A stretch of DNA of 64,000 nucleotides from Mustelus asterias. Lineage: Eukaryota. Both the position numbers and the translations under genes were made by a program. Positions 3,566-64,000 of this stretch are shown here, piece after piece. The stretch is from positions 50,964,001 to 51,028,000 of the forward strand of contig NC_135808.1 of NCBI RefSeq assembly GCF_964213995.1, in the 5' to 3' direction. The notes under the pieces are model-generated. The model saw nothing but the letters and a program-made list of their open reading frames with translations, searched no databases and was not told where the DNA came from. Numbering within the stretch: position 1 is the first letter of the stretch; every line of letters starts with the position of its first letter.

Positions 3566-3789
3566 TGATGCACTATCAATCGAGCCGAGACTAGTTGTGA
3601 GCAAGACAAATAGGCTTTTATTGGCAAGAACTTGGAGCCATCCCTGTTGATGATCTGGTCTGAACTGAGAGCAAGGGGGGAGGAGCCACCGCCTTTATAC
3701 CCAGACCAGGGGGAGGAGACTTGGGCGGAACCGACAGGGATGTGCCACATATACAGGTAACAGATAACAGGTAACAGTGGTTTACCACA
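3566..3789 (-). repeat. 3' LTR of gypsy element A
   Basis: The minus strand reads TGTGGTAAACC...GTGCATCA with TATAAA and AATAAA, preceded by the purine tract AAATAGGGGGTGAA. Confidence 0.9.
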
Positions 3790-6300: not shown

Positions 6301-6916
6301 CATGTTGTTGAACATAAAGGCAACGGATCATTGGTCCGTGAGCAGGGTGAACCGTTTACCACCTAAATAGTGGCGCCAGTGCCGTACAGCTTCCATTATG
6401 GCTTGGGCCTCTTTCTCGACAGAGGAGTGTCGAGTTTCGGGGCCTTGGAGGGTTCGTGAAAAGAAGGCCACGGGTCTGCCCGCCTGGTTAAGGGTGGCGG
6501 CTAAGGCAAAGTCAGACGCATCGCTCTCCACCTGGAACGGGATGGATTCGTCTATAGCGTGCATCGTGGCCTTCGCGATGTCTGCTTTGATGCGGTCGAA
6601 GGCCAGCCGGGCCTCCGCCGTCAGGGGAAAAGGGTGGATTTTATGAGCGGACGGGCTTTATCTGCATAGTTGGGGACCCATTGTGCATAGTACGAGAAGA
6701 AACCCAAGCATCTTCTCAGTGCTTTGAGGCTAGTGGGGAGGGGAAGTTCCAGGAGGGGACGCATACGGTCGGGATCGGGGCCGATGACCCCATTCTCCAC
6801 TACGTACCCGAGGATGGCGAGGCGGTGTGCACTGAACACGCACTTCTCCTTATTGTAGGTCAGGTTAAGGAGCCTAGCCGTGTGCAGGAATCTGTGGAGG
6901 TTGGCATCGTGGTCCT

Positions 6917-7194
6917 TGTGGTGAACCATAGATGGTTACCACTATGGGTACTTGTACATAAGTTACTCTTGTTACTGTTGGGGTTAGGGTTTGGGTGTTC
7001 CACCTGTTATTATTGTTTATGTGGTACACTCCGTTCGGCTCCGCCTTCTTACAGGAGTATAAAGGTCACTGCTACTTCCTAGTCGCCCTTAGTTAGGGAT
7101 AATATTGTTAAGTAGTGTGCTCCTATCTTGTTGTGAATAAAAGCCTTTATTCCCGGGTACGTCCTAGCCTCCCGTGTGAATCAATCGCGCATCA
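6917..7194 (+). repeat. 5' LTR of gypsy B1
   Basis: TG...CA termini, TATAAA near 7058, AATAAA at 7136; direct repeat of 11269-11575. Confidence 0.95.
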
Positions 7195-7240
7195 ATTTTA
7201 TTCACAACAAAATACTGAAAATTTTGTTCAGAACAAAAAA

Positions 7241-10200
7241 ATGGAGCAGATGCTAAAGCCCGATCGGCTAAACTTGGATCCGCGTGCCGCTGGGGCGTCG
7301 AACACTTTCGACCATTGGTTGAAGTGCTTCGAGGATTACGTTGAGGCCTCGACAGCAGTCCAGTCCGACGCCGACAGATTGCGGGTCCTCCACGCCAGGG
7401 TGAGCGACACTGTGTATGCAACAATTCACGATTCCCAAAATTACAAAGATGCTATCGAATTACTCAAGAAGCTGTATAATAAACAGCCAAACGAAATTCA
7501 TGCTCGTCACCTATTAGCCACTCGACGGCGGCAGCCCAGCGAAACTACGGGACAGTACCTGCACGAACTTCAACAGCTAGCCAGAGCCTGCAACTGCAAG
7601 GCGGTGTCGGCTACTCAATACACCAACGACCTTATTCGGGACGCGTTCGTGGCGGGAATCGGCTCATCCTATATTCGCCTGCGGCTGCGAGAGCAGGGGA
7701 ACCTGGACCTGGCTAAGATGGTAGAATTGGCCGATGCAATGGAAACGGCCTCCAGAAGTCTCGAAACCTACCCCACTGACCACGTGGTAACAGCGTGGCA
7801 AGCACAGCCGCCGCCTCAGCTGTACTCGGCGGCTCCTCGGAACTGCGCGATGATGCTCCCAACTTCAGACCTGACGGCTGCGGCAGCTCCTGGAGGCCCA
7901 CGGTGCTATTTCTGCGGATTGGCGAAGCATCCTCACCAGAGATGTCCGGCCAGGACGGTGTTTTGCTCCGCCTGTGGAAAGAAAGGGCACTATGCAAAAG
8001 TGTGCCGAGCAAAGACCCCTTCCAAGCCCAGCAGTGCTGCGTGCGACTCTCCAGGATCCGTCTCCTCGTCTCCGGCCTCGTCGATGTCTTCAGCCACGTG
8101 CGATCCACGGGCGCCGCCATTTCCTATGACGACGATGCAAGCCACGTGGAACCTGTGGGTGCCGCCGTTTTCAACATCATCGACCACGTGCGATTCATGG
8201 GCGCAGCCATTTTGGTCGACACCGGCTGCAGAAGACCAGCAGGGGTCCTTGTTGTCGGCTATCTCAGCTGCCTGCAGTTACGCTCGGGATCCAACAGTGG
8301 CGTCAATCATCCTGGACCAGGCCAAGCCTCACAGACTCGACAAGTCCATGATGGACATAGAGGTAAACGGGCGCCTGGCGAATTGCCTGTTTGACAGCGG
8401 GAGCACGAAGAGCTTCATCCATCCGGATAAAGTAAAATGGTGCACTCTCCGTGTGCAAACTGTCAGGCAGACAATCTCCATGGCGTCGAGGTCCCCATCT
8501 GCCCTCGTTCTTGGGAGCTGTGTGGTAACCTTAACGGTGCGGGGCACAGTCTACGAGAACTTCAGGCTCCTCGTGTTACCGCACCTTTGCGCTCCGGTAC
8601 TCCTGGGGCTAGACTTTATGGTCCACCTGAAGAGTGTGACCCTGCAGTACGATGGGCCACTCCCTCCACTTTCAGTGGGAGAACAGCAGCCTCCAAATTG
8701 CCCAACGCGCTCCACATGCAGTCTCTCTACACTCAAAATTACCCCGCCTTCCCTATTCGAAAATCTCGTGCCAGGCTGCAAGTCCATCGCGACTAAGAGC
8801 AGGCGTTACAGCGCTGAGGATCGGATCTTTATTAGATCTGAGGTTCAGCGGCTCCTCAGGGAAGGGGTCATTCAACTTAGCACTAGCCCATGGAGAGCAC
8901 AAGTCGTGGTGGTTAAGACTGGAGACAAGCCCCGGATGGTCATAGACTATAGTCAGACCATTAATAGGTACACGCAGCTGGACGCGTACCCTCTCCCGCG
9001 CATATCTGACATGGTCAATCAGATTGCGCAGTACCGGGTGTTCTCCACCATCGACTTGAAGTCAACCTACCGCCAGCTCCCCATTCGCCCAGAGGACCGC
9101 AAATACACGGCCTTTGAGGCGGATGGCCGTCTCTACCACTTTTTAAGAGTCCCTTTCGGCGTCACTAATGGGGTCTCGGTCTTCCAGCGTGAGATGGACT
9201 GAATGGTGGACCAAACGGGCTATGGGCTACCTTCCCGTACCTGGACAACGTCACTATCTGTGGCCATGACCAGCAGGACCACGACGCAAACCTCCAGAAG
9301 TTTTTACGCACTGCGTCTCGCCTGAACCTGACCTATAACAAGGGGAAGTGCGTATTTAGCAAGCACCGCCTAGCAATCCTCGGAAACGTGGTGGAAAACG
9401 GGGTCATCGGCCCCGATCCAGACCGTATGCGTCCCCTCCTTGAACTTCCCCTACCCACTAGCATCAAAGCACTGAGAAGATGTTCAGGCTTCTTCTCATA
9501 CTACGCACAGTGGGTCCCCAATTACGCGGACAAAGCCCGTCCGCTCATAAAATCTACCTCTTTTCCCCTGGCAGCAGAGGCTCGCTTAGCCTTTGAAAGG
9601 ATAAAAGCCGACATCGCGAAAGCCACGATGCACGCTGTTGATGAATCCATCCCCTTCCAGGTGGAGAGTGATGCATCTGATTTCGCCCTGGCCGCCACAC
9701 TTAACCATGCGGGCAGGCCCGTCGCCTTTTTCTCTCGCACCCTCCAAGGCCCTGAAATTCGGCACTCCTCTGTGGAGAAAGAGGCTCAGGCCATTGTGGA
9801 GGCCGTACGGCATTGGTGCCATTATTTGGCTGGCAAACGGTTTACCCTGCTCACGGACCAGCGGTCCGTGGCCTTCACGTTCAACAACACGCTAAAGGGA
9901 AAAATTAAGAATGATAAAATCTTGAGCTGGAGAATCGAACTCTCCACCTACAACTATGATATCATGTACCGTCCGGGGAAACTCAATGAGCCCTCAGATG
10001 CCCTGTCGCGTGGAACATGTGCCAGTGTGCAGGAGGACCGGTTACAGGCCCTCCACAATGATCTCTGCCATCCGGGGATCACTCGGTTTTTCCATTTTGT
10101 AAAGGCTCGGAATCTGCCCTACTCCATAGAGGATGTCAGGTCGATAACTCGAAGCTGCCAGGTTTGTGCAGAGTGCAAGCCGCACTTCTACCGGCCTGAC

Positions 10201-11205
10201 AGGGCACACCTCATTAAGGCCACTCGCCCTTTTGAACGACTGAGTGTCGACTTCAAGGGCCCCCTTCCTTCGACAGATCGGAATGTGTATTTCCTCAACG
10301 TGGTTGACGAATACTCCCGATTCCCCTTTGCCATCCCCTGTTCTGACATGTCCTCTGCCACGGTCATCAAAGCCCTGCGGAGTCTTTTTACCCTGTTCGG
10401 CTACCCCAGTTATATCCACAGTGATAGGGGTTCGTCGCTTATGAGTGACGACTTGAGGCAATACCTGCTCTCTAAGGGAACTGCCTCAAGTAGGACTACG
10501 AGTTACAACCCCAGGGGTAACGGACAGGTCGAGAGAGAAAACGCTACAGTCTGGAAGGCTGTTTTACTGGCGCTGAGGTCTTGGGGTCTTCCAGTCACCC
10601 GTTGGCAAGAGGTACTTTCTGATGCGCTCCATTCAATCCGGTCCCTCCTGTGTACGGCATCCAACGCTACCCCACATGAGCGGATGTTTACCTTCCCTAG
10701 GAAGTCTTCCTCTGGGACCTCACTGCCGTCTTGGTTGACGTACTCAGGACCTGTCCTCCTGCGGCGACATGTTAGGACCCGCAAGTCCGACCCTTTGGTT
10801 GAACAGGTCCATCTCCTCCACGCCAACCCTCAATATGCCTATGTGGCATATCCTGACGGGCGAGAGGACACGGTCTCGATCAGAGATCTAGCGCCTGCAG
10901 GGGACCTGGAAACTCCCGTAACTCCCGCACCCCTGGTTAGGATTCCTTTGCCCATTCTCTCCCCTCCTGACTCGGCACGGGCAGCATCGGGACCTCAACT
11001 TAATCCTCTTACTCCCGTGTACAGCTTGCCTGAGTCCAGGAGATTGTCGCCACCTCGAGGTCGACAAGCGTGTGAGGAACTGGAGGAGTCAGTGGACACC
11101 ACCTCGGAGAGAGGGTCGTCACCACGGTCACCAGAACCGGCAGTGGAGCCAGTGCTGCGGAGGTCGCAGAGACGGTGCGGCCCTCCGATACGGCTGAAAT
11201 TGTGA
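7241..11205 (+). pseudogene. gag-pol polyprotein of gypsy B1 (single frame, broken by a stop at 9200-9202 and a frameshift near 9215)
   Basis: ORFs 7115-9202 and 9388-11205: two CCHC knuckles, LFDSGST protease, RT with YLDN, RNase H (SDASD...EKEA...TDQ), integrase (H-H-C-C, D-D-E). Confidence 0.92.
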
Positions 11206-11268
11206 ACATGTGGACAGTTCGTATTGTCTCCTTACCCCACCGGCCTTTGTTTTTAAAGGAGGGGTGAA

Positions 11269-11575
11269 TGTGGTGAACCATAGATGGTTACCACTATGGG
11301 TACTGAACCATAGATGGTTACCACTATGGGTACTTGTACATATGTTACTCTTGTTACTGTTGGGGTTAGGGTTGGGGTGTTCCACCTGTTATTATTGTTG
11401 ATGTGGTACACTCCGTTCGGCTCCGCCTTCTTACAGGAGTATAAAGGTCACTGCTACTTCCTAGTAGCCCTTAGTCTGGGATAATATTGTTAAGTAGTGT
11501 GCTCCAATCTTGTTGTGAATAAAAGCCTTTATTCCCGGTATGTCCTAGCCTCCCGTGTGAATCAATCGCGCATCA
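11269..11575 (+). repeat. 3' LTR of gypsy B1 (carries a 30-bp tandem duplication)
   Basis: Direct repeat of 6917-7194 following the PPT. Confidence 0.95.
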
Positions 11576-26813: not shown

Positions 26814-27110
26814 TGTGGTGAACCATTGTTGGTTACCACCAGGTAGTGCTGAGCCATGGTCTGGCCAGTACTATGAGTCTGTAGATATGTTACTGTTGGG
26901 GTTAGGGTTGGGCTGTTCTACCTTTTAATATAGTCCTATGATACACCCCAGTTGGCTCCGCCTCCTGGGAGAGGTATAAAGGTCACTGCTCTGCCTGGTG
27001 ACCCTTTAGTCTGGGATTGTATATTGTATATAGTAGCTCCGTTATTGTTGGCAATAAAAGCCTTTATTTCCCGGGTACATCCTGTCTCCCGTGTGATTTA
27101 TCACGCATCA
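26814..27110 (+). mobile_element. Solo LTR of the B-like gypsy family, inserted in an old CR1 remnant
   Basis: TGTGGTGAACC...GCATCA with a perfect 5-bp target duplication ATAAC; TATAAA and AATAAA present. Confidence 0.93.
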
Positions 27111-28785: not shown

Positions 28786-29636
28786 TGTGGTGAACCACTG
28801 TAATGCTGTCTGTTTATGGGATATGCCTGGGCATGCCCCTGCTGCCTCAATCCGGGGCTCCGCCCTCCTCGGGGTATAAAGGTGGCTGCTCTCCACCCCT
28901 TTTGCCTCAGTTCGGGTTAGCATCGGTTTGGGAGTGCTTCAGTTCTTTGTTAATAAAAGCCTGTTGTTTAGCAACCTCTAGTCTTTGCGTGAATCAATGG
29001 TGCATCAATTTTATTAACAACAGTTTTGAAATGGAGCAACTCCTGAAACCTGGCAAATTGGATCTGGATCCGCAGGCAGTCGGCGCCTCTGACTCTTTTG
29101 ATCACTGGCTGCGCTGTTTTGAGACCTTCATCGTCTCCTCCTCCTCCGTCGTCGTAACCGACATCGACAAACTACACGTGCTCCACGCCCGCGTCAGCGC
29201 TCACGTCTTCGCGCTGATCCGAGACGCAGAGACTTACCAGGAGGCAATCGATCTCCTCAAGAGCCAGTACAACCGGCAGCTGAACGAGGTCTACACCAGA
29301 CACCTGCTGGCCACTCGCAGACAGCAGCCCGGGGAATCGACTGAGCAATTCCTGCGCGAACTGCGTGCACTCGGCAGAGCCTGCAACTGCAAGGCCGTTT
29401 CAGCCGCCCAAAACGCCGACGACCTGATCAGAGATGCCTTTGTCGCGGGCATCAGGTCGACCGATATCCGGCAGCGTCTGCTGGAGCAAGGTGGGCCGGA
29501 CCTGAAGAAAACTGTGGAACTTGCCGGCTCGCTGGAGGTAGCGTTCCGGAACCTCGAGGCCTACACCCCCGGCCACGAGGGCGCACCGTGGACACCGCGA
29601 CCGCAGCCATCGCTGTACCCGGGAGGGCCGCAAACC

Positions 29637-29913
29637 TGATGCGCGATTGATTCACACGGGAGGCTAGAACGTACCCGGGAATAAAGGCTTTTATTCACGA
29701 CAAATAGGAGCACACTACTTAACAATATTATCCCAGACTAAAGACTGCTAGGAAGTAGCAGTGACCTTTATACTCCTGTAAGAAGGCGGAGCCGAACGGA
29801 GTGTACCACATAAACAATAATAACAGGTGGAACACCCCAACCCTAACCCCAACAGTAACAAGAGTAACATATGCACAAGTACCCATAGTGGTAACCATCT
29901 ATGGTTCACCACA
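29637..29913 (-). mobile_element. Solo LTR of family B inserted in gag of element C
   Basis: Reverse complement of 6917-7194; perfect target duplication AAACC. Confidence 0.95.
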
Positions 29914-32319
29914 AAACCTACACCACGCCCCATCCCGAAGCCGAACTGACCACTGCGGCAGTCCCCGGAGGCGTGAGGTGCTACTTCTGCGGCCTGGAGA
30001 AGCACCCACGACGACGCTGCCCGGCGAAAGACGCGATCTGCTCTGGCTGCGGTAAGAAGGGTCATTACCTGAAAGTTTGCAGGGCAAAATCAGCCTCCAG
30101 GCCCAGCAGCGCCGCGTGCGATCCGCGGGAGGGATTGCCTTCGACGCCATCGACCGGGTGTGATCCGCCATTTTGGACACGAGCGGCCACGTGCGACCCA
30201 TGGAGGCCGCCATCTTGGACGCCATCAGCCACGCGTGACCCACGGGAGCCGCCATCTTGGGTGACGTCAGCCGAGTCACGGGGGCCGCCATTTTGGGAAC
30301 CGTCCACCGCATCGCCTAATCCGACAGTGGCCTTGGTCGTGTTGGACCAGTCCAGGCCTCACCAGCTCGCCTGGTCGATGATGGACATCAAGGTAAACGG
30401 CCACACTACTAACTGCTTATTTGACAGTGGGAGTACGGAGAGTTTCATCCACCCTAACCCGGTGAGGCGCTACGCACTGCCAGTACGGCCAATGCAGCAA
30501 TCAATCTCTATGGCTTCGAAGTTCCGGTCAGTGAATGTCCTCAGCTACTGTGTAGCAACTCTGACTGTACGGGGCACGGTGTACGACAAGTGCAAGCTCC
30601 TCGTGCTGCCACAGCTCTGCGCTGCCGTATTACTGGGGCTAGATTTCATGTGCCACCTTGGGAGCGTCACCATGGTGTATAATGGGCCTTTTCCCCCAAT
30701 CTCCGTCCAAAATCCACAGCTAACAGACCAGCCACCGCGCACCACCTGTGGTCTCTCGACCCTCAAAGTCGCCCCTCCCTCGCTCTTTGAGCACCTCACC
30801 CCCGACTGCAAGCCCATTGCCACCAAAAGCAGACGGTACAGCGCTGGTGATAGAGTGTTCATCAAGTCCGAGGTGCGACGCCTCCTGGGGGAGGGGATCA
30901 TTGAGGCCAGTACCAGCCCTTGGAGAGCCCAAGTGGTGGTTATCAAGACTGGGGAGAAACATCGCATGGTCATTGACTACAGTCAGACCATCAACCGATA
31001 CACGCAGCTGGACGCGTATCCCTTCCCCACATATCTGACATGGTCAATCAGATTGCACAATATCGGGTGTTCTCCACCATTGATTTAAAGTCTGCATACC
31101 ACCAGCTCCCTATCCGCCCGGAAGACCGCCAATACACTGCCTTCGAGGCGGATGGCCGTCTCTACCACTTCCTTTGGGTCCCTTACGGCGTCACCAACGG
31201 GGTCTCGGTTTTCCAGCATGAGATGGACCGAATGGTGGACCAGAATGGGCTGGGGGCCACCTTCCCGTACCTGGATAACGTCACCATCTGCTGCCACGAT
31301 CAGCAGGACCACGACGCCAACCTCCAAAAATTCCTCCACACTGCGGCACTCCTCAACCTGACCTACAATAAGGAGAAGTGTGTATTCCGCACGCGCCACC
31401 TCGCCATCCTTGGTTGTGTTGTGGAGAACGGGGTCATCAGCCCCGACCCCGACCGCATGCGTCCCCTCCTGGAACTTCCCCTCCCCACCACCCTCAAAGT
31501 GCTGAGGAGATGCCTAGGCTTCTTCTCGTACTACGCCCAGTGGGTCCCCAATTATCCGGACAAAGCCCGTCCGCTCATTAAATCCACATCTTTTCCCCTA
31601 GCAGCGGAGGCCCGGCTGGATATCAAAGCGGATATCGCGAAGGCCACGATGCACGCCGTAGACTAATCCACCCCATTCCAGGTGGATAACGATGCGTCTG
31701 ATTTTGCCCGAGCCGCCACTCTTAACCAGGCGGGCAGACCCGTGGCCTTCTTCTCGCGCACCCTCCAGGGCCCTGAAATTCGACACTCCTCTGTCGATAA
31801 AGAGGCACAAGCCATCGTGGAGGCGGTGCGGCACTGGCGCCACTACTTAGCTGGCAAACGGTTCACCCTGCTCACGGAGCAACGGTCCGTTGCCTTTATG
31901 TTCAGCAACACGCAGCGGGGCAAAATCAAGAACGATAATATTTTGAGGTGGAGGATCAAGCTCTCCACTTAGAATTACGACATTTTATACCGGCCTGGGA
32001 AACTCAATGAACCCCCAGATGCCCTGTCCCGGGGGACCTGTGCCAGCGTGAACCTAGACCGGTTACAGACCCTCCACGATGACCTCTGCCACCCGGGGGT
32101 TACCAGGTTCTTCCATTTCATCAAGGCCCGGAACCTGCCCTATTCCATTGAGGAAGTCAGGTCTGTAACCAGGCACTGCCAAGTCTGCGCGGAGTGCAAG
32201 CCGCACTTCTACCGACCAGACAGAGCGCACCTCATCAAAGCCATCCGCCCTTTCGAATGCCTGAGCGTTGACTTCAAAGGTCCCCTCCCCTCCTCTGACC
32301 GCAACGTATACTTCCTCAT

Positions 32320-35300
32320 ATTGGAGGAACAGAGAGATCTTGGGGTCCATTTCCACAGATCTCTAAAGGTTGCCACTCAAGTGGATAGAGCTGTGAAGAA
32401 GGCCTATAGTGTGTTAGCGTTTATTAACAGGGGGTTTGAGTTTAAGAGCCGTGGGGTTATGCTGCAACTGTACAGGACCTTGGTGAGACCACATTTGGAA
32501 TATTGTGTGCAGTTCTGGTCACCTCACTATAAGAAGGATGTGGAAGCGCTGGAAAGAGTGCAGAGGAGATTTACCAGGATGCTGCCTGGTTTGAAGGGTA
32601 GGTCTTATGAGGAAAGGTTGCGGGAGCTAGGGCTGTTCTCTCTGGAGCGGAAGAGGCTGAGGGGAGACTTAATAGAGGTTTATAAAATGATGAAGGGGAT
32701 AGATAGAGTGAACGTTCAAAGACTATTTCCTCGGGTGGATGGAGCTATTACAAGGGGGCATAACTATAGGGTCCGAGGTGGCGACAATCTCCTGGACTCA
32801 GGCAAGCTGTACACGGGAGTAAGAGGATTAAGTGGTGGTCCCGATACTGCCCGCGCCGTGTCAGGAGGGGAGATAAAGGGCAAGGGGTCCCTAACCAGGG
32901 GTGCGGGAGCGACGGGGGTTTCCAGGTCCCCTGCAGGCGCCAGATCTCGAATAGAGACCGTGTCCTCTCACCCGTCAGGATATGCTACATAGGCATATTG
33001 AGGGTTGGCGTGAAGGAGATGGACCTGTTCAACCAAAGGGTCGGACTTGCAGGTCCTAACATGCCGCCGCAGGAGGACAGGTCCTGAGTACGTCAACCAA
33101 GACGGCAGTGAGGTCCCAGAGGAAGACTTCCTAGGGAAGGTAAACATCCGCTCATGTGGGGTAGCGTTGGTTGCCGTACACAGGAGGGACCAGATTGAAT
33201 GGAGCGCATCAGGAAGTACCTCTTGCCAACGGGAGACTGGAAGATCCTTAGACCTCAACGCCAGTAAGACAGCCTTCCAGACTGTAGTGTTTTCTCTTTC
33301 GACCTGCCCGTTACCCCTGGGGTTGTAACTCGTAGTCCTACTTGAGGCAATCCCTTTAGAGAGCAGGTATTGCCTCAAGTCGTCACTCATAAACAACGAA
33401 CCCCTATCACAGTGGATATAACTGGGGTAACCAAACAGGGTGAAAAGATCCCACAGAGCTTTGATAACCGTGGCAGCGGTCATGTCTGAACAGGGAATGG
33501 CAAAAGGCAATCGGGAGTACTCGTCAACCACGTTGAGGAAGTACACATTCCGGTCTGTCGAAGGAAGGGGGCCCTTGAAATCAACACTCAGTCTTTCAAA
33601 AGGGCAAGTGGCTTTAATGAGGTGTGCCCTGTCAGGTCGGTAGAAGTGCGGCTTGCATTCAGCACATACCTGGCAGCTTCGAGTTATCGACCTGACATCC
33701 TCTACGGAGTAGGGTAGATTCCGGGCCTTTACAAAATGGAAGAGCCGAGTGATCCCCGGATGGCAGAGATCATTGTGGAGGGCCTGTAGCCGGTCCTCCT
33801 GCACACTGGCACATGTTCCACGTGACAGGGCATCTGAGGGCTCATTGAGCTTCCCCAGACGGTACATGATATCATAGTTGTAGGTGGAGAGTTCGATTCT
33901 CCACCTCAAGATTTTATCATTTTTGATCTTACCCCTTAACGTGTTGTTGAACATGAACGCCACGGACCGCTGGTCCGTGAGCAGGGTAAATCGTTTTCCA
34001 GCCAAATCATGGCGCCAATGCCGTACGGCCTCCACAATGGCCTGAGCCTCTTTTTCCACAGCAGAGTGCCGAATTTCAGGGCCTTGGAGGGTGCGAGAGA
34101 AAAAGGCGACGGGCCTGCCCGCCTGGTTAAGTGTGGCGGCCAGGGCGAAATCAGATACATCACTCTCCACCTGGAAGGGGATGGACTCATCGACAGCGTG
34201 CATCGTGGCTTTCGCGATGTCGGCTTTTATCCCTTCAAAGGCTAAGCGAGCCTCTGCTGCCAGGGGAAAAGAGGTAGACTTTATGAGCGGACGGGCTTTG
34301 TCCGCATAATTGGGAACTCACTGTGCGTAATACGAAAAGAAGCCTAAGCATCTTCTCAGTGCTTTGATGCTAGTGGGTAGGGGAAGTTCAAGGAGGGGAC
34401 GCATACGGTCTGGATCAGGGCCAAGGACCCCGTTTTCCACCACGTATCCGAGAATTGCTAGGCGGCGCTTGCTGAATACACACTTCTCCCTGTTATAGGT
34501 CAGGTTCAGGCGAGACGCAGTGCGTAAAAACTTTAGGAGGTTGGCATCGTGGTCCTGCTGGTCATGGCCGCAGATAGTGACGTTGTCCAGGTACGGGAAG
34601 GTAGCCCGTAGCCCATTTTGGTCCACCATTCGGTCCATTGCACGCTGGAAGACCGAGAACCCATTCGTGATGCCAAAGGGAACCCTTAAGAAGTGGTAGA
34701 GACGACCATCCGCCTCAAAGGCCGTATATTTTCGGTCCTCTGGGTGAATGGGGAGCTGGTGATAGGCTGACTACAAGTCAATGGTGGAGAACACCCGGTA
34801 CTGCGCAATCTGGTTGACCATGTCAGATATGCGCGGGAGAGGGTACGCGTCCAGCTGCGTGTATCTATTAATGGTCTGACTATAGTCTATGACCATCCGG
34901 GGCTTGTCTCCAATCTTAACCACCACGACTTGTGCTCTCCATGGGCTAGTGCTAGGTTGAATGATCCCTTCCCTGAGGAGCCGCTGAACCTCAGATCGAA
35001 TAAAGATCCGATCCTCAGCGCTGTAACGCCTGCTCTTAGTTGCGATGGGCTTGCAGCCTGAAACGAGATTCTCAAATAAAGATGGCGGGGTGATTCTGAG
35101 TGTCGAGAGACTGCACGTGGAGCGCGCTGGGCAATTTGGAGGCTGCTGTTCTCCCACTGAAAGTGGAGGGAGTGGCCCATCGTACTGCAGGGTCACACTC
35201 TTCAGGTGGACCATAAAGTCTAGTCCCAGGAGTATCGGAGCGCAAAGGTGCGGTAACACGAGGAGCCTGAAGTTCTCATAAACTGTGCCCCGCACCGTTA

Positions 35301-37090
35301 GGTTTACCACGCAACTCCCAAGAACGGTAACAGATCGGGACCTCGACGCCATAGAAATTGTCTGTCTGACAGTCTGTACTCGGAGACCGCACAGTTTCAC
35401 GGTGTCAGGATGAATGAAACTCTCCGTGCTCCCGCTGTCAAACAGACAATGTATCAGGCGTCCGTTTACCTCTTTGTCTATCATGGACTTGTCGAGTCTG
35501 TGAGGCTTGGCCTGGTCCAGGATGATTGACGCCACTGTTGAATCTTGAGTGCAACTGCAGGCAGCTGAGATGGTCGATGATGATGACCCCTGCTGGTCGT
35601 CTGCGGTCAGTGTCGACCAAAATGGCTACGCCCATGGATCGCACGTGGTCGATGGCGTTGAAAGTGGCGGCACTCGCAGGTCGCACGTGTCTTGCGTCGT
35701 CGTCCTCAGGAATGGCGGCGCTCGTGAATCGCACATGGTGGAAGACCTCGACGAAGCCGGAGACAAGGAGACAGATCCTGGAGATTCACGCGCCGCACTG
35801 CTTGGCTTCGAAGGTGGTTTAGCTCAGCACACTTTCGCATAGTGCCCTTTCTTCCCACACGCGGAGCAAAATACCGTTCTGGCCGGACATCGCTGACGAG
35901 GGTGCTTTGCCAATCCACAAAAATAGCACCGCGGGCCACCTGGAGCTGCCGCCGCCGTCAGGTCCAAGGTTGAAAGCACGATCGCGCAGTTCCGAGGAGC
36001 CGCTGGGTAGAGTTGAGTCGGTGGCTGTACTTGCCACGATGTTCCCATGTGGTCGGTGGGGTAAGTTTCAAGACTTCTGGAGGCCGTTTCCATCGCATCA
36101 GCCAATTCCACCGTCTTAGCTAGGTCTAAGTTACCTTGCTCTAGCAGCCGCAGGTGAATATAGGATGAGCCGATTCCCGCCACGAGCGCATCTCGGATCA
36201 GATCGTTAGTGTATTGAGTAGCCGACACTGACTTGCAATTGCAGGCTCTGGCTAGCTGCTGAAGTTTGCGCAGGTACTGTCCCGTCGTTCCGCCAGGCTG
36301 CCGCCGTCGAGTGGCTAGTAGGTGCCGAGCATGAATCTCATTTGGCGGTTTGTTGTACAGTTTCTTAAGTAGTTCGATGGCCCCTTTGTAGTCTTGGGCA
36401 TCACGGATTGCTGCATACACAGTGTCGCTTACCCTTGCGTGGAGGACCCGCAATCTATCGGCGTTGTTTTGGACTGCTGTTGAGGCGTCGATATAATCCT
36501 GGAAACACTTCAACCAATGGTCGAAAGTGTCCGACGCTCCAGCGGCACGCGGATCTAAGGTAAGCCGATCGGGTCTTAACATTTGCTCCATGGTTTTTTT
36601 TTCCACCAAAATTATTACTAATAAAATTGATGCGCGATTAATTCACTCGGGAGGCTGTATCGTACCCGGGAAATAAAGGCTTTTATTAGCAACAAGAATG
36701 GAGCAAACTGCTTAGCAATACAATCCCAGACTAAAGGGTCACTAGGCAGTGCAGTGACCTTTATACTCCTATAGGTAGGCGGAGCCAACCGGAGTGTACC
36801 ACAGAACAATACTAACAGGTGGAACACCCCAACCCTAACCCCAACAGTAACAAGAGTAACATATGTACAAGTACCCATAGTGCTAACCATCTATGGTTCA
36901 GTACCCATAGTGGTAACCATCTATGGTTCACCATAACACTTTAGGAACATTAAGCGGTTATTGGATAGGCACATGGAGCACACCAGGATGATAGGGAGTG
37001 GGATAGATTGATCTTGGTTTCAGATAAAGCTCGGCACAACATTGTGGGCCGAAGGGCCTGTTCTGTGCTGTACTGTTCTATGTTCTATGT
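32320..37090 (+). mobile_element. 5'-truncated CR1 LINE (32320 to about 32775 and 36936-37090) inserted in the integrase of C and itself interrupted by gypsy B2
   Basis: EQRDLGVH...EYCVQFWSPH...RGHNYRV, then the 3' end with a (TTCTATG)n tail; the flanks rejoin to integrase YFLNIVD. Confidence 0.88.
32775..36935 (-). mobile_element. Ty3/gypsy element B2 (5' LTR 36628-36935; 3' end deleted)
   Basis: gag (ATG 36591), PR/RT (34771-35535, 34318-34638) and RH/INT (32968-34203), all closely similar to B1; no 3' LTR. Confidence 0.93.
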
Positions 37091-40000
37091 TCAACATCGT
37101 TGATGGGTATTCGCGGTTCCCCTTTGCTATTCCCTGCCCGGATATGACCTCGGCCACGGTCGTCAGGGCCCTGCACAGCCTCTTCACCCTGTTTGGTTTC
37201 CCCAGCTATATTCATAGCGACTGGGGTTCCTCTTTTATGAGTGACGAGCTGCGCCAGTACCTACTCTCCAAAGGCATAGTCTTGAGCAGGACCACCAGCT
37301 ACAACCCCAGGGGGGATGGACAGGTGGAGAGGGAGAATGCGACAGTCTGGAAGGCCATTTTATTAGCTCTCCGGTCTAAGGGTCTTCCAGTCTCCCGCTG
37401 GCAAGAGGTCCTCCCTGATGCACTACACTCAATTAGGTCACGACTGTGCACCCCTCATGAACGAATGTTTGTTTTCCCCAGGAAGTCCTCCTCGGGGACC
37501 TCACTACCGTCGTGGCTGACGTCCCCAGGCCCTGTCCTGCTCCGGAAGCACGTGCGGACCCATAAGTCGGACCCCCTGATCGAAACGGTCCGGCTCCTCC
37601 ACGCCAACCCCCAATACGCCTATGTGGCGTATCATGACGGGCGGGTGGACACGGTCTCCATTCGCGATCTGGCCCCCGCAGGTACTACGTCCCACGGCCC
37701 CTCACCCCCAGCTCCCAACGTCGTCCATGATGCACAAGAGTCGCAGCACGCTCATTTAGCCCCCGTGTACGGCACGCCTGAGCCCCAGGAGCTGCCTCCA
37801 CACACCCGGCAGTCTGAAGGCGCGACGGACGGCTTCACCGGTTATGGACTGGCGTCTGACCCATCACCGCGGCCTCCTGAACCGGCGCCACGGCTGACAT
37901 TGCGGCGGTCGCAGCGGCAGATCAAGCCCCCGGAGAGACTGAACTTGTAACTTGAATCAATAACTTGTGACTGTCGTTCCACCACCTCGCCCCCGCCAAA
38001 CTCTTTTTTAAACAGGGGGTGAATGTGGTGAACCACTGTAATGCTGTCTGTATATGGGATATGCCTGGGCACGCCCCTGCTGCCTCAATCCGGGGCTCCG
38101 CCCTCCTCGGGGTATAAAGGTGGCTGCTCTCCGCCCCTTTTGCGTCAGTTCAGGTTAGCCATCGGTTTGGGAGTGCTTCTGTTCTTGTTAATAAAAGCCT
38201 GTTGTTTCGCAACATCTAGTCTTTGCGTGAATCAATGGTGCATCACTCGATACTGCACTGGATCTCAGCCTGGATGATGTGCTCAAGCGTCAGGAATGGG
38301 ATTTGAAGCCACAACATTGTGACTCAGAGGCGAGAGTGTTAGCCACTAAGGTACGTCTGACACCTCACACTCCAATAGGCTGCCATCTTCACCCTCCTGC
38401 CTCACACTTGGAGGAATGAGGCAACTTGGGGAGGGTGGAGCTGTTCCCCAGCCAGAGAGAGTGTCTTCAGGAGAGAGATGGAGAGCAGATTGTGGGAGGC
38501 CTGTAGTCTAGAGGGGGGACATTTAACCAGTCGCTGACAGGTGCTGAGCCCTTTCCCCATGAGGATTTTGGAAGTGGATGCGGAAAGTGGGAGGTGAACT
38601 AGAGAAATGTCTTTGTCGCTGCTGAAACTCTTGCTATCTGCTCAGTCACATCTAATAAACACACAGACAAATCAGGCAAACATCAGTCTGTTTCTGTGGA
38701 TTCTCTGCTGCTTTCAGTTCAATGAAGAGTGCAGGAGGACATGGCAGGAGCAACAGCAGACATACTGAAAAATGAGGTGTTAACCTGGTGAAGCTACAAC
38801 ACAGGACTGTGTGTCAAACAGCAGAAGCAGCAAGTGATAGACAGAGCTAAACCATCCCACAAACAATGGATCAGATCTAAGCTCTGCAGTCCTGCCACAT
38901 CCGGGGACCAATGCTTGATCCGTGGGGGTGTTAGATGGGCAGCAATGAGGGGTCGTGGGGCTGGCCAGTGATCAGGAGGCCAGCAGTGCGGGCCACTGTG
39001 CTTGTGCCAATCTCTGCACATGCACAGTGGCTCACTCAGCACTACGCTGCTGGCCTCTCCAGCAAGAATAGGCCCCAGTCCCAGATTTTTATCTTGAATC
39101 TCACTAGGGCTCTCTGTGATGCACAGAGTGTGGGAGATTCACTTTGAACATTTTTTTTACAGTTTTTACACGATTTTGACACTTAGAATGTTTTTGGGAG
39201 AATCCTACCTCCAAGGTTTTGGCCTCAAATGATTGTGGTGATAGTGAATTCCACAGGCTCACCACTCTCTGGGTGAAGGAAATTCTGCTCATCTCAGCCC
39301 TAAAAGTTTTACACCGTATCCTCAGGCTGTGACCTCTGGAACCGGACACTCCCACCACCAGGAACATAATTCCTGTATCTCCCCTGTCTAGTCCTGTTCA
39401 TAGCTTTCTATGAGATCTCCTCTCACTCTTCTGAACTGCAGTGAATATAATCTTAACCAACACAATCTCTCCTCCTACATCAGTCCCATTATCCCAGGAA
39501 TCAGTCCGGTAAACCTTTGCTGCGCTCCCACTGTCGCAAAGACATCCTTCCTCAGATAAGGATACCCAAACGGCAAGCAATTTTCCCAGTGTGGCCTCAC
39601 CAAAGGACATAGAGAGGACAAATACAAAGAAACTTTTCCCCAAGTAGAAGGGTCAATAACCAGGAAGAATAGATTTAATTTCAGATTTTGAGGGACTTGA
39701 TGCAAATCTTTTCACCCAGAGGTTCTGGGAATCCGAAACTCACTGCCTGAAATGGTGGAAGCAGTGGGAACCCCCACAACATTTAAAAAGCATTTAGATG
39801 AGCACTTGAAGCCCCAAAGCGCACAAGGCTACAGACCACGTGCTGGGAAATGGGATTAGAATAGATAGGTGCTTAATGGCCGGCAGAGACAGGATGGGCT
39901 GAAGGGCCTCTTTCTGTGCTGTAAATTTCTATGAGACGATGACTGAGCCAAGATGGCCGAGAATGTAAAGTGACCAGCTTCTGGAAAATTCCGATGTGGG

Positions 40001-42150: not shown

Positions 42151-42332
42151 CAGTGTTTTGTTGGGAGAGTTGAGAATTCTAATTTGAGATGATAAATCTT
42201 TCAGCTGCTCTTCATATGTGGACATGGAGAGTAAGAGGGAAACTCGAGGCCTTCAGCGAGCGGTGGACACCACAGGGACTGGAGTGTGTAGTGGACAGTG
42301 CAAATAATTTGTCCAGTTTCCTTTCTTGTCTT

Positions 42333-43487
42333 TATTATATATTATATAAAACTGTGGGATGTGTCAGTACAGGAGGTGGGACTGTGTGTCCATTATTATA
42401 TATTATATAAAACTGTGGGATGTGTCAGTACAGGAGGTGGGACTGTGTGTCCATTATTATATATTATATAAAACTGTGGGATGTGTCAGTACAGGAGGTG
42501 GGACTGTGTGTCCATTATTATATATTATATAAAACTGTGGGATGTGTCAGTACAGGAGGTGGGACTGTGTGTCCATTATTATATATTATATAAAACTGTG
42601 GGATGTGTCAGTACAGGAGGTGGGACTGTGTGTCCATTATTATATATTATATAAAACTGTGGGATGTGTCAGTACAGGAGGTGGGACTGTGTGTCCATTA
42701 TTATTTATTATATAAAACTGTGGGATGTGTCAGTACAGGAGGTGGTGCTGTGTGTCCATTATTATATATTATATAAAACTGTGGGATGTGTCAGTACAGG
42801 AGGTGGGACTGTGTGTCCATTATTATATATTATATAAAACTTTGGGATGTGTCAGTACAGGAGGTGGTGCTGTGTGTCCATTATTATATATTATATAAAA
42901 CTGTGGGATGTGTCAGTACAGGAGGTGGTGCTGTGTGTCCATTATTATATATTATATAAAACTGTGGGATGTGTCAGTCCAGGAGGTGGGACTGTGTGTC
43001 CATTATTATATATTATATAAAACTGTGGGATGTGTCAGCACAGGAGGTGATGCTGTGTGTCCATTATTATATATTATATAAAACTGTGGGATGTGTCAGT
43101 ACAGGAGGTGGGACTGTGTGTCCATTATTATATATTATATAAAACTGTGGGATGTGTCAGTACAGGAGGTGGGACTGTGTGTCCATTATTATATATTATA
43201 TAAAACTGTGGGATGTGTCAGTACAGGAGGTGGGACTGTGTGTCCATTATTATATATTATATAAAACTGTGGGATGTGTCAGTACAGGAGGTGGGACTGT
43301 GTGTCCATTATTATATATTATATAAAACTGTGGGATGTGTCAGTACAGGAGGTGGGACTGTGTGTCCATTATTATATATTATATAAAACTGTGGGATGTG
43401 TCAGTACAGGAGGTGGGACTGTGTGTCCATTATTATATATTATATAAAACTGTGGGATGTGTCAGTACAGGAGGTGGTGCTGTGTGT
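42333..43487. repeat. 61-bp minisatellite, about 19 near-identical copies, in the V-J interval
   Basis: Unit GTGTCAGTACAGGAGGTGGGACTGTGTGTCCATTATTATATATTATATAAAACTGTGGGAT; starts at 42361 and 43459 are 18 x 61 bp apart. Confidence 0.97.
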
Positions 43488-43492
43488 GGGGG

Positions 43493-43520
43493 GGTTTTTG
43501 TAAGGCTCTGTATCACTGTG
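43493..43520 (-). promoter_or_regulatory. 12-bp-spacer recombination signal sequence of V
   Basis: Minus strand CACAGTG, 12 bp, ACAAAAACC; both elements are perfect consensus. Confidence 0.97.
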
Positions 43521-43818
43521 CAGGGCCAGCTGGAACATTGCAGACAGTAATAATCAGCGACATCCTCATTCTGTACATTGCTGATTGTCAGGATGGATCT
43601 TGTCCCAGATCCACTGCCGGTGAATCGGTCGGATATTCCTGTGAATCGAGTTGCTACAGTATAGATCAGCAGAGCCGGTTTATGTCCTTCTCGCTGTTGG
43701 TACCAATTCACGTAACTGCCAATGCTTTGACTGGCCGTACAGGTGATGGTGGCGGTCTGGCCCAGGCTCACTGACAGCAGCGGGGGAGACTGGGTCATGA
43801 TGACGTCTCCATTGATAC
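43521..43818 (-). CDS. IGKV: Immunoglobulin light-chain (kappa-type) V exon, germline unrearranged
   Basis: AG acceptor at 43820-43819; (G)[26 protein letters not shown]...WYQQ...LLIY...RFTGSGSGT...[15 protein letters not shown]; open frame; 12-RSS follows directly. Confidence 0.95.
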
Positions 43819-44919: not shown

Positions 44920-45850
44920 CTCTGCCCCAGAAGAGACACCACCCTCCTGGTATCCACTCTGTCAGTCCCCTCACAATCTGATATGTTTCAATAAGATCAC
45001 CTCTCATTCTTCTAAACTCCAATGGGTTCAGGCCCAGCCTGTCCAACTTTTCTTCATAAGATAACCCCTCACCCCAGGAATGTGTCGAGTGAATCTTCTC
45101 TGAACTGCTTCGAACACAATGATATCCTTTTCCAAATAAGGAGACCAAAACTGTACACAGTATTCCAGATGTGGTCTCACCGAGACTCTGTACAGCTGCA
45201 GTAAAACTTCCCTATTTTTATATTCCATTCTCCTTGTAATAAACACCAACATTCCATTTGTCTTCCTAATCACTTGCTGTAGCTGCAGACTAACTTGTTG
45301 TGATTCATGTCCCGGGACAGCCAGATCCCTCTGTAGCACCGAGTTGTGCAATCTCTCTCCATTTCAATAGTTTACTGCTGTTCTATTCTTCCTGCCAAAG
45401 TGGACACCTTCACATTTACCCAGGATATACTCCAGATGTTTAGCCACTCACTTCCCCTGTCCCTATCCCTTTGCAGACTCTCTACCTCCTCTTGAAACTT
45501 ACTTTCCCACCTATCTTAGTGTCATTGGGACATCAGCTCCATTCACTCCCTTCATCCAAGTCATTGATATGGATTGTGAATAGTTGTGGTCCCAGCTGAT
45601 TGTTCCAGAACTCCACTAATTACAGCTTCCCAACCCCAAAACAATCATTTATCCCCTCCCTCTTGTTTCTGTTAATTAACCAATCCTCTATCAATGCTAA
45701 TATGTTACCCACACACCATCAGCTCGTAAACTGTGTGGTAACATTTGATGTGGCAATTCATTTAATACCTTTTGAAATTCCATGTAGTCACATCTATAAT
45801 TTCCCCTTTATCCACATTGTAACTTCCGCAAAGATGGACAATCACACATT
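44920..45850 (-). mobile_element. Decayed CR1 LINE RT fragment
   Basis: RPHLEYCVQFWSPYL and RRMRGDLIETY motifs. Confidence 0.8.
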
Positions 45851-45891
45851 TATAACATAAAGAAACTGCTCCACATCGACCATGTCCATGT

Positions 45892-46258
45892 CCCACTGGA
45901 CCCTCAAATAATGACCAGTAAATATGGATCTTCTTCCCACTGATGCCTCCAATAGGGAGCAGTAAACATGGGCCTCCTTCCCACTGGACCCTCCAATAGG
46001 GACCAGTAAACATGGGCCTCCTTCCCACTGGACCCTCCAATAGGGACCAGTAAACATGGGCCTCCTTCCCACTGGACCCTCCAATAGGGACCAGTAGACA
46101 TGGGCCTCCTTCCCACTGGACCCTCTAATAGGGACCAGTAAACATAGGCTTCCTTCCCACTGGAGCCTCCAATAGGGAGCAGTAAACATGGGCCTCCTTC
46201 CCACTGGAGCCTCCAATAGGGACCAGTAAACAGACCTCCTTCCCACTGGAGCCTCCAG
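45892..46258. repeat. 44-bp minisatellite, about 8 copies
   Basis: Unit CCCACTGGACCCTCCAATAGGGACCAGTAAACATGGGCCTCCTT. Confidence 0.93.
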
Positions 46259-46548
46259 TAGCTGAGCTTCAAACTCCACATCCTCCCCATCACGTAAGCC
46301 TCTTATTTCCATCTCTACAACATTGTCCGTCTCTACACTACACCAGCCCCATGAGCGCAGAGACTCTTATCCCTGCTTCTCACTCCTCCTAACTCTATTA
46401 TTCCGATATCCTCTCCTGGCTCCCTTCATCCACACTCCATAAACCCCAACTTATCCCAAATGCAGTGCGTCCGAACCCTGTCTCACACCAAGTGTCGTTC
46501 CAACATCACCCCTGACCTCACTGACCTATCACCCCTGACCTCACTGAC

Positions 46549-61799: not shown

Positions 61800-64000
61800 T
61801 GTGGTGGACTTCAGTTGTGCCTTTGTCCTGCCTGGACCACCGTTGTGTGTTTGTTATGCCTAGACACATCCCCTGCCGGCTCGGCTCCTCCCCTTGTCAC
61901 CTAGTATAAAGGTGGCTGTCTCCTCCCCCTTGTTCAGTTCGGGTCGGTTACCTGTTGGGATGTGCTCCTGATTCTGTTATGAATAAAAACCTACAGTTGT
62001 ATTGGCACACAAGTAGTCTTTTGCCTAATTGATAGCGCTTCAATTTTATTCATTACATTTGACCGACATGGAGCAGCTTTTAAAGCCCGACAAGTTAACA
62101 TTGGACCCTCAAGAGGTCGGAGTTTCTGATAAATTTGACCATTGGCTGGACTGCTTTGAAGCATTCATCGACGCTGCTGCGGCCATCGACACCGACGGCG
62201 CTAAGCTCCACGTGCTCCGCGCCCGGGTAAGCGATGCAGTCTACGGTATCTTCCGGGACGCTACTACATACGTGGACGCGATAGAACTCTTAAAAGGGCA
62301 GTTTCGAAAGAGCCCTAACGTGGTCTACGCCAGACATCTCCTGGCTACTCGCAGGCAGCAGCCAGGAGAATCGTGCGCCCAATTTCTGCGCGCCCTGCGG
62401 GTCCTAGCTCGAGCTTGCGACTGTAAGGCTGTTACAGCAGCTCAGAACACGGAGGACCTGATGCGGGACGCCTACGTCGCGGGTACTTACATTCGGCAGC
62501 GCCTGCTTGTACAGGATGGCCTGGATCTCCAGAAAACGGCCACGATGGCTGAATCTCTAGAAGCGGCCTCCCGCAATCTTGGGGCCTACCCTGCACCCCG
62601 TTGCATCGATGGTTCCACCGCGGCGGCTGTTCCAGCAGGGCCCAAATGCTACTTCTGCGGCCTAGCCAAGCACCCTCGGCGTCACTGCCCGGCGAAGGAG
62701 GCGGTCTGCTCCGGATGCGGTAAGCTAGGCCACTTCGTTAAAGTCTGCCTGGTGAAGCCGATCGCGAAACCTCGTGGCGCCGCGTGTGTTCCGCGGGCGC
62801 AGCCATCTTTGATGCAGTCAGTGGCTGCGTGCGAATTGCCATCTTTGATGCAGTCAGCGGATGCGCGCGAATCGCCATCTTTGATGCAGTCAGCAGATGC
62901 GCGGGAATCGCCATCTTTGATACAGTCAGCGGCGCGATAGTTGCCATCTTGGGTGCCGTCATCAAGGCGCGCCGAGCGGGAAACTTCATCCGTGACGTCA
63001 TCAGACGCGGACGAAGATGAATACTTACTGGGTTTGACGGTGGCATCGATTTGCCTGGACCAATCTCAGCCTCACCAACTCTCCAAGTCAATAATGGAGA
63101 TCAAGGTAAATGACCATGCAGAAAACTGCCTGTTCGACTGCGGGAGCACAGAGAGTTTTATACACCCTCGCACAGTGCGTCAATATGCCCTTCCCGTGCG
63201 GCCCTGGAGCCAGACCATCTCCATGGCTTCGGATTCCCACTCAGTGGAGGTCCTCGGGTGCTGTTTGGTGACTCTGACGGTACAGGGCACAGTCTACGAG
63301 CGTTTTCGGCTCCTCGTGCTGCCGCGGCTCTGCGCAGCTGTACTGCTGGGGTTAGATTTCCTCACCCATCATAGAAGCGTCATCCTGCAGTATGATGGCC
63401 GTTATCCCCCGCTCTCCGTCTGCAAGGCGCCGTCACTGCAGCGCCCCTCGCGCACCACCTGCAGTCTCTCGACCCTCAAGATTACCCCCCCCCCCCCTTT
63501 ATTCGATAATTTCACCCCGGATTGCAGGCCTATAGCCACCAAAAGTAGGCGCTATAGTGCGGAAGACCGGGCCTTCATTCGGTCCGAAGTACAACATTTG
63601 CTCAAGGAAGGGATTATCCAGGCCAGCACCAGCCCCTGGAGGGCGCAGGTGGTCATAGTTAAATCGGGGGAGAAACACCGCATGGTGATTGACTACAGCC
63701 AGACCATAAACAGGTATACGCAACTAGATGCGTACCCTCTTCCCCGTATCGCGGACATAGTCAACTGCATCGCGCACTATAGGGTTTTCTCTACGATTGA
63801 TTTAAAATCGGCTTACCACCAGCTCCCTATCCGCTCGGAGGATCGCCCATATACTGCCTTTGAGGCGGACGGTCGCCTCTACCAGTTCCTCCGAGTCCCT
63901 TTTGGTGTTACCAATGGGGTCCCAGTTTTCCAGCGGGCCATGGATCAAATGGTGGACCAGCACGGGCTACGGGCCACTTTCCCGTATCTGGATAATGTCA
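61800..64000 (+). mobile_element. Ty3/gypsy element D (5' LTR 61800-62042, gag from 62068, PR, RT); runs off the window end
   Basis: TGTGGTGG...GCTTCA LTR with TATAAA and AATAAA; MEQLLKPDKLTLDPQ gag, two CCHC knuckles, LFDCGST protease, RT to YLDN; frameshifted. Confidence 0.92.

Follow-up and report, generated by a model that had tools for sequence, protein, structure and literature searches.

Compact Ty3/gypsy retrotransposons in the cartilaginous fish Mustelus asterias that probably prime reverse transcription with their own RNA

A 64,000-nt stretch of the Mustelus asterias genome (contig NC_135808.1, positions 50,964,001 to 51,028,000; hereafter the window) raises the question of what primes the reverse transcription of a group of LTR retrotransposons in which the tRNA site, at the point where copying would start, is replaced by a complement, 12-18 nt long, of a segment of the element's own LTR. 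This replacement argues that the elements likely prime with their own RNA, and we place the probability of self-priming in some form at about 0.87, judging from sequence comparison and structure prediction. To a fuller account, in which compact Ty3/gypsy elements would be cut between AAA and GCC to give a long, capped primer ending in an internal LTR arm, with masking of the 5' poly(A) signal as a secondary effect, we would give even odds. Within the 64 kb lie four families that present a junction between 5' LTR and primer-binding position, together with two more LTR families, all belonging to one clade. The features are the following.

6917..7194, plus strand: B1 5' LTR (TG...CA); flanking 5-mers GTCCT/GCCCT, 4/5 identical
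7058..7063, plus strand: B1 TATAAA box
7089..7094, plus strand: B1 initiator-like YYAGTY with its A at 7091, the predicted transcription start, 52 nt upstream of the arm end
7128..7142, plus strand: B1 LTR arm, with AATAAA at 7136-7141; predicted 3' segment of the self-primer
7143..7145, plus strand: GCC adjoining the 3' end of the B1 arm; predicted cut between AAA and GCC
7196..7210, plus strand: B1 primer-binding position, 15/15 complementary to the B1 arm, 1 nt past the terminal CA
7241..11205, plus strand: B1 gag-pol (Gag, PR, RT, RNase H, IN), in two frames in this copy, their junction near 9193-9202
11255..11268, plus strand: B1 polypurine tract
11269..11575, plus strand: B1 3' LTR
28786..29007, plus strand: C 5' LTR; TATAAA at 28875, initiator A at 28909
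28947..28958, plus strand: C arm
29009..29020, plus strand: C primer-binding position, 12/12 pairs; gag ATG at 29031
38024..38245, plus strand: C 3' LTR
36628..36935, minus strand: B2 5' LTR; TATAAA at 36765, initiator A at 36732
36681..36695, minus strand: B2 arm
36612..36626, minus strand: B2 primer-binding position, 13 Watson-Crick and 2 G-U pairs here, 15/15 in most copies of the family
61800..62042, plus strand: D 5' LTR; TATAAA at 61905, initiator A at 61936
61975..61988, plus strand: D arm
62044..62057, plus strand: D primer-binding position, 13/14 against the D 5' LTR; gag ATG at 62068
3566..3789, minus strand: family A 3' LTR, whose arm was used to predict the family A site
26814..27110, plus strand: solo LTR of family S, with a 5-bp target duplication ATAAC; its arm was used to predict the family S site
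29637..29913, minus strand: solo B1-type LTR, inserted in element C

Element C (28786-38245) contains, nested inside it, the solo B1 LTR, the B2 element and a LINE fragment. The window also holds tandem arrays at 42210-43607 and 45847-46276, with units of 61 nt and 44 nt.

The first-pass annotation of this DNA had described four 5' LTRs lacking a downstream TGG, short leaders, and a post-LTR segment complementary to an arm within the same LTR, and each of these descriptions is borne out by the sequence. The sites begin one A past the LTR-terminal CA in all four window elements, the leader to the gag ATG measures 23-46 nt, and the site pairs with its own arm through 15 Watson-Crick pairs in B1, 12 in C, 13 plus two G-U in B2, and 13 of 14 in D. 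The 3' LTR of D, which lies just outside the window, pairs 14/14 with the D site, and imperfect pairing in the window copies mostly reflects defects of individual copies. When the LTR of one copy from each of 8 families was subjected to 300 dinucleotide shuffles, the shuffled LTRs gave longest runs with means of 4.1-4.7 and maxima of 7-9, against observed runs of 9-15; no shuffle was as long as the observed run in 7 families, and 1 of 300 was for the B2 copy. The arms of the two families that appear in the window without a junction had further been used to forecast what should follow their 5' LTRs elsewhere. Among the 30 loci collected for each LTR, ATTTTATTGGCAA begins the site at all 4 gag-flanked LTRs of family A, and ATTTTATTGCCAA does so at 9 of the 11 gag-flanked LTRs of the solo-LTR family, the other two having one G-U variant and one mismatch, respectively.

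Additional copies were gathered from the genome by Gag or LTR similarity rather than by the motif itself, yielding 153 junctions, of which 151 were placed (L282 among them duplicates L013). TGG occurs within the first 6 nt past the LTR in 0 of the 151, and an unbroken Watson-Crick run of at least 11 bp is present in 116, at an offset of 1 in 113 of these. GCC stands immediately 3' of the arm in 109 of the 116 paired copies, and in copies from this genome the arm ends 47-55 nt before the end of the LTR. Pairing is specific to each family: when the LTR of one family is set against the site of another, only about 7 bp remain, representing the common AATAAAA/TTTTATT core, the exception being B1 and D2, which have the same arm. 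Further copies of D/D2 (54 fetched) show at least 11 bp in 37 of 47 that were readable, with TGG in 0 of 47, and among B2 copies (30 collected, 28 readable) 20 have at least 11 straight Watson-Crick pairs, most of these 15/15, a figure that rises to 25 of 28 when G-U pairs are counted.

That the site varies in sequence between families while its pairing is kept, as originally proposed, is supported by compensatory changes both within and between families. Within families, position 8 of E is T-A in 16 copies and G-C in 8 (p=1e-6), position 10 of D/D2 is A-T in 60 and G-C in 12 (p=8e-12), position 11 of D/D2 is T-A in 57 and A-T in 8 (p=8e-6), and position 10 of B2 is G-C in 13 and A-T in 10 (p=3e-4), with compensatory variants also at position 11 of B1 (p=0.002) and of C (p=0.003); these p-values count copies rather than independent events. 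Among doubly changed cells, 18 of 19 remain Watson-Crick. The alifold analysis that had been suggested as a check gave the same picture, in that RNAalifold, supplied with 16 natural copies, recovered no helix other than the site-arm one, in which 5 of 14 pairs have changed on both sides. Where mismatches occur they appear to be mostly late: 17 mismatched copies have both LTRs, and 10 of these, D of the window among them, pair completely with the 3' copy, which implies that most mismatches arose after insertion, and the other 7 differ on the primer-binding site (PBS) side. Family D2, with LTRs 99-100% identical, unbroken frames of 1349 codons and a duplex of 15/15, is both young and intact, and the notion that the site is a decayed tRNA PBS was therefore rejected, the youngest copies being those with a perfect duplex. 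Taken with the PBS-like register and the lack of TGG, the compensatory changes within and between families leave tRNA-independent self-priming well supported on comparative grounds.

A few copies bear on how site and LTR are inherited. In L373 and L383 the two LTRs agree in subvariant and the site, in linkage with the gag type, is of the other subvariant; this would suggest, from these 2 copies only, that re-templating of the PBS from the primer is not obligatory in each cycle. Separately, D (61800-62057), L384 and L386 have matching target duplications, yet their 5' and 3' LTRs are distinct subvariants, set apart by several linked positions; in D/L384 and in L386 the primer site agrees with the 3' LTR, pointing to gene conversion or intermolecular strand transfer.

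The pairing extends well beyond this genome. Distant relatives were represented by 92 loci, taken from contigs of metagenomes and from stray ones in bacterial bins; L231-L242 are animal-type retrotransposon contigs within bacterial MAG assemblies and apparently represent contamination. Runs of 10-18 bp were found in 21 of the 25 distant loci with a readable gag start. As to the remaining 4, the duplex is intact in L192, which has lost its terminal CA, 10 of 11 pairs are present in L202, whose LTR end fell beyond the search range, and the 5' LTRs of L223 and L228 are disrupted; four more distant junctions (L162, L182, L193, L234) were read by eye. When 26 types are tabulated with the register as anchor, the spacer measures 1 nt in every one, and the triplet 3' of the arm is GCC in 16, ACC in 5, GCT in 3 and something else in 2. 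Across 20 families pairing is near complete to position 11-12 and fades beyond: positions 1-11 are Watson-Crick in 217 of 220 cells, compared with a mean of 141 and a maximum of 168 in 20,000 permutations, positions 12-15 in 56 of 80 (permutation mean 29.5), and positions 16-20 in 24 of 100, with no excess over the mean of 26. This cross-family permutation is partly circular, the distant arms having been found by a best-run search, and it ignores kinship. Since pairing at positions 12-15 still exceeds permutation, bases past position 11 are probably part of the RNA.

How such a duplex might be used can be set out by analogy with Tf1, whose primer is made by RNase H cleavage of a fold-back duplex (PMC7175516; bioRxiv 10.1101/2022.12.06.519325; these and the other papers below are cited from the portions available). 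The RNA would fold back so that the 12-18 nt past the 5' LTR pair with the LTR arm; the element's own RNase H would then cut between AAA and GCC, freeing a 3'-OH on the arm, from which reverse transcriptase would extend, copying U5 and what remains of R. This short cDNA would finally jump to the 3' R, for which 15-25 nt beyond AAUAAA would provide the overlap. In every family the 3' end of the arm supplies what a primer 3' end requires, as the paired site starts next to the LTR end. Single-sequence folds often place a helix directly 3' of the arm in most copies, and the consensus fold retains the central duplex only; a conserved 5' hairpin in the stretch from initiator to arm, considered on the basis of single folds, was discarded as absent from the consensus. 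Rfam gave no match at 6900-7400. A conserved CC follows the Tf1-type cut, a point for which our literature search gave no confirmation.

The probable length of the primer depends on where transcription starts. In 8 of 8 families of this genome TATAAA lies 82-87 nt upstream of the arm end and the A of a YYAGTY initiator (consensus, PMC3601003) about 49-54 nt upstream. This spacing predicts a capped primer of 50-55 nt in these families, that is, transcription would start 50-55 nt before the cut and the primer would be a capped fragment carrying the internal arm, longer than the 11-mer of Tf1. Distant relatives show no TATA box at a fixed distance, and L156, L194 and L237 carry an initiator-like TTAGTT whose A is exactly 11 nt away from the end of the arm. 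Many of these relatives, as far as motif spacing can tell, look more like elements with an 11-nt primer of the Tf1 type, and a Tf1-sized primer may be the ancestral state.

These last features are also what could be expected if all of the elements, including those of this genome, followed the mode of Tf1 exactly, with the reverse-transcribed RNA starting at or just before the arm, its first 10-15 nt acting as primer, and the TATA box driving another transcript or none. The near-perfect core of 11-12 bp fits such a mode, as do the preference for G at position 10 (17 of 20 families) and for A or T at position 11 (19 of 20), the placement of the TTAGTT A in the three relatives just mentioned without a conserved TATA, and the use of alternative start sites by Tf2 (PMC5341516). 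It is harder to reconcile with the fixed TATA-arm and initiator-arm spacing of all 8 families, with covariation that continues through positions 12-15 and runs that reach 15-18 bp, and with the fact that a further TATA-like motif, some 30 nt ahead of the arm end, occurs in family S only; we regard it as an unlikely alternative, though one to be taken seriously. A different source for the same sequence would be another copy of R: the one at the 3' end of the same molecule, one in a second RNA packaged with it, or one in a short LTR transcript whose trimmed end is AAUAAAA. The arm is indeed present in both LTRs, and in L121 and L135, which have matching target duplications, the site matches the subvariant of the 3' LTR and not that of the 5'. 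Conversion or recombination of the 5' LTR would explain that discordance, however, and the 5' arm lies just 23-76 nt from the site with a predicted pair probability near 1, so that priming from another R strikes us as improbable. Searching by pattern for LTR copies with a poly(A) tail gave 0 matches, an uninformative outcome.

A further possibility is that the duplex exists for some purpose other than priming. In this genome the arm contains AATAAA in 139 of 144 readable copies, and it includes the only canonical hexamer of the LTR in 8 families (one copy checked in each), so that the 5' AAUAAA would be hidden in the duplex as well. Folding predicts the hexamer to be buried at the 5' end only, the predicted cost of opening it being 7.1-9.5 kcal/mol there versus 0.7-2.5 at the 3' end (5 elements). 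A duplex serving solely to conceal the poly(A) signal of the 5' end, or to control packaging or translation, while priming relies on another RNA or site, would accommodate these observations and the need of retroviruses to silence their 5' poly(A) site (PMC3694450). It would accommodate less readily the distant relatives, in which AATAAA or ATTAAA occurs in only 7 of 18 arms; the other 11 keep the duplex without it, two of them carry a hexamer farther downstream, and the hexamer-free arms occupy five separate places on the tree. Nor does masking require the fixed 1-nt register past CA or the conserved RCC, and no alternative primer site was seen. Accordingly, the tie to the poly(A) signal drawn in the first-pass annotation holds for this genome, in all 8 families of which the arm contains the LTR's only AATAAA/ATTAAA, and fails for most of the distant relatives; the conserved feature is the priming register, with masking at most secondary, and we consider a role in masking or control alone to be quite improbable. 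As a second use of the duplex in the families of this genome, and not universally, masking is plausible from the folding predictions. B-type LTRs also have a local hairpin, AATAAA-AGCC-TTTATT (window 7135-7152; B2/S LTRs), a potential competitor of the long duplex that would exist at both ends. Least credible of all is a host primer, either a tRNA fragment or another small RNA. Half-tRNA primers are indeed used in some copia lineages (PMC6317226), and our screen covered a partial set of 36 distinct host tRNA genes under 10 labels; in that set the longest tRNA 3'-end match to the site was 1 nt, in keeping with the original claim that no tRNA site exists, and the longest match anywhere was 6-9 nt, not anchored at the site start. 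A stronger argument than this screen is that the site follows the LTR of each family, varying in step with it and not with any fixed RNA, to which may be added the absence of an Rfam match in the region noted above. In the same genome a large tandem array of tRNA genes, mostly called Thr, with a period of about 1.8 kb, extends over about 97.26-98.64 Mb of G000:C16.

As to what the elements are, the B1 product comprises Gag (two Cys/His clusters), protease, RT (YLDN), RNase H and integrase, arranged as in Ty3/gypsy (Pfam), and the elements have gag-PR-RT-RH-IN between TG...CA LTRs, a polypurine tract and 5-bp target duplications, as befits Ty3/gypsy; the nearest RT of solved structure is that of Ty3. 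They are short, single-ORF elements of about 4.0-4.6 kb with leaders of 16-46 nt, a full-length copy in this genome measuring about 4.4-4.6 kb. Cigr-1 is also a short single-ORF element, of about 4.2 kb. No Pfam chromodomain match was obtained in the integrase of the window or in 8 further proteins (L274 scanned minus its last 29 codons). Among named homologs the best come from rays and catsharks and the next from cnidarians, molluscs, Trichinella, a crinoid and a psyllid, with moths farther out; protein cluster look-ups gave an organism for 1 of 20 clusters, with moth proteins only, and no relatives were found among the viral contigs searched. In a tree of RT-RNase H every self-pairing locus that was placed falls in one clade (SH-aLRT 99, 70 of 105 rows; outgroups unnamed), and a PF03732 search of the genome for sushi-type outgroups returned one weak match. 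The lineage is abundant in the 3.68-Gb host genome, which yielded about 15,000 gag candidates at first look.

The RT active site of B1 reads YLDN instead of YxDD (window 9193-9260), as it does in the youngest unbroken copies (L274, L286, L288, L290), and YxDN occurs in 73 of 198 homologous proteins. YLDN was dismissed as a marker of the clade, within which YxDD and YxDN are intermixed. The RTs of Ty1 and HIV are impaired when the last aspartate is lost, and natural YxDN enzymes merit study.

The closest functional likeness is to Tf1/Tf2 of Schizosaccharomyces pombe, Tj1 and Tosmo/Tcry (the Tf1/sushi group of chromoviruses), and to the Tcn1 clade of plants and fungi, which have no tRNA site and in which the PBS pairs with the element's own LTR, through a segment of about 11 nt in the Tf1/sushi group (PMC7175516; PMC4600332). 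The present elements share such complementarity, of that length or more, and differ from the group in having no chromodomain. Their duplex is of 12-18 bp as against about 11 nt in Tf1; the predicted position of their arm is an internal one, some 40 nt downstream of the start, and in this genome the arm overlaps AAUAAA; and they are compact, with a single ORF, a short leader and an RT that is often YxDN. In the Tf1 "pretzel", helices flanking the primer/PBS duplex form inside the loop (bioRxiv 10.1101/2022.12.06.519325); the helix right after the arm in single folds may be comparable, whereas our consensus fold holds only the central duplex. Self-priming has also been predicted, from an LTR-complementary PBS, outside Tf1/sushi for the TAR/Houba/Osr-1 elements (PMC6317226), but those are Ty1/copia elements of plants, in contrast to the PR-RT-RH-IN order and animal hosts found here. 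Dictyostelid Skipper (PMC5006619) and a bivalve TRIM (PMC6934838) are without tRNA sites, and the available portions of those reports identify no LTR-pairing primer. In lineage the elements resemble Cigr-1, MolGy1-16 and Mag A/B/C, animal clades outside the chromoviruses that are delimited by RT/RNase H (Thomas-Bulle 2018, PMC6238403; annelid survey, PMC8556966); the lineage includes members from molluscs and probably belongs to one of these Cigr-1/MolGy/Mag-type clades; the available text of the two surveys, of mollusc and annelid Gypsy elements, does not mention primer sites.

Self-priming in Ty3/gypsy has been described as a mark of the Tf1/sushi chromoviruses, being predicted as well for Tcn1 and one plant copia lineage (PMC6317226; bioRxiv 10.1101/2022.12.06.519325). 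We found no description of it for the present lineage in the literature searched; Repbase, GyDB, Butler 2001, Goodwin and Poulter, and Simmen and Bird 2000 were beyond the reach of that search and may record it. Most likely, on the comparisons made here, the kind of priming is a known one and its use by a non-chromoviral animal Gypsy clade a new variant. A bolder proposal, about which we are doubtful, is that a widespread animal Ty3/gypsy clade gained tRNA-free self-priming independently of Tf1/sushi, its cartilaginous-fish families having come to use a capped primer of about 50 nt, cut immediately past the poly(A) signal, and one duplex for both silencing of the 5' poly(A) site and priming. 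If self-priming in this lineage is real, independence of tRNA arose more than once or predates the current view; such elements would presumably escape silencing by tRNA fragments, and their primer sites would be missed by annotation tools that rely on the PBS. With a short duplex, known covariation and a cut predicted to the nucleotide, the proposal lends itself to an in vitro test with a leader RNA about 130 nt long.

The comparison with retroviruses is instructive in another respect. Their poly(A) signal, too, is present twice, which poses the same problem, and they suppress the 5' copy by a splice donor and an R-region hairpin in HIV-1, by U1 binding in foamy virus, or by having a weak site in MoMLV (PMC3694450); masking through primer-site pairing is not among the mechanisms in the available portion of that review. 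Here, unlike in retroviruses, the strand that would do the masking lies outside the LTR, which would confine its effect to the 5' end, and it would serve as the primer site as well. If the primer is indeed internal and overlaps AAUAAA, these elements would represent a new coupling of 5' poly(A) suppression to the priming of reverse transcription.
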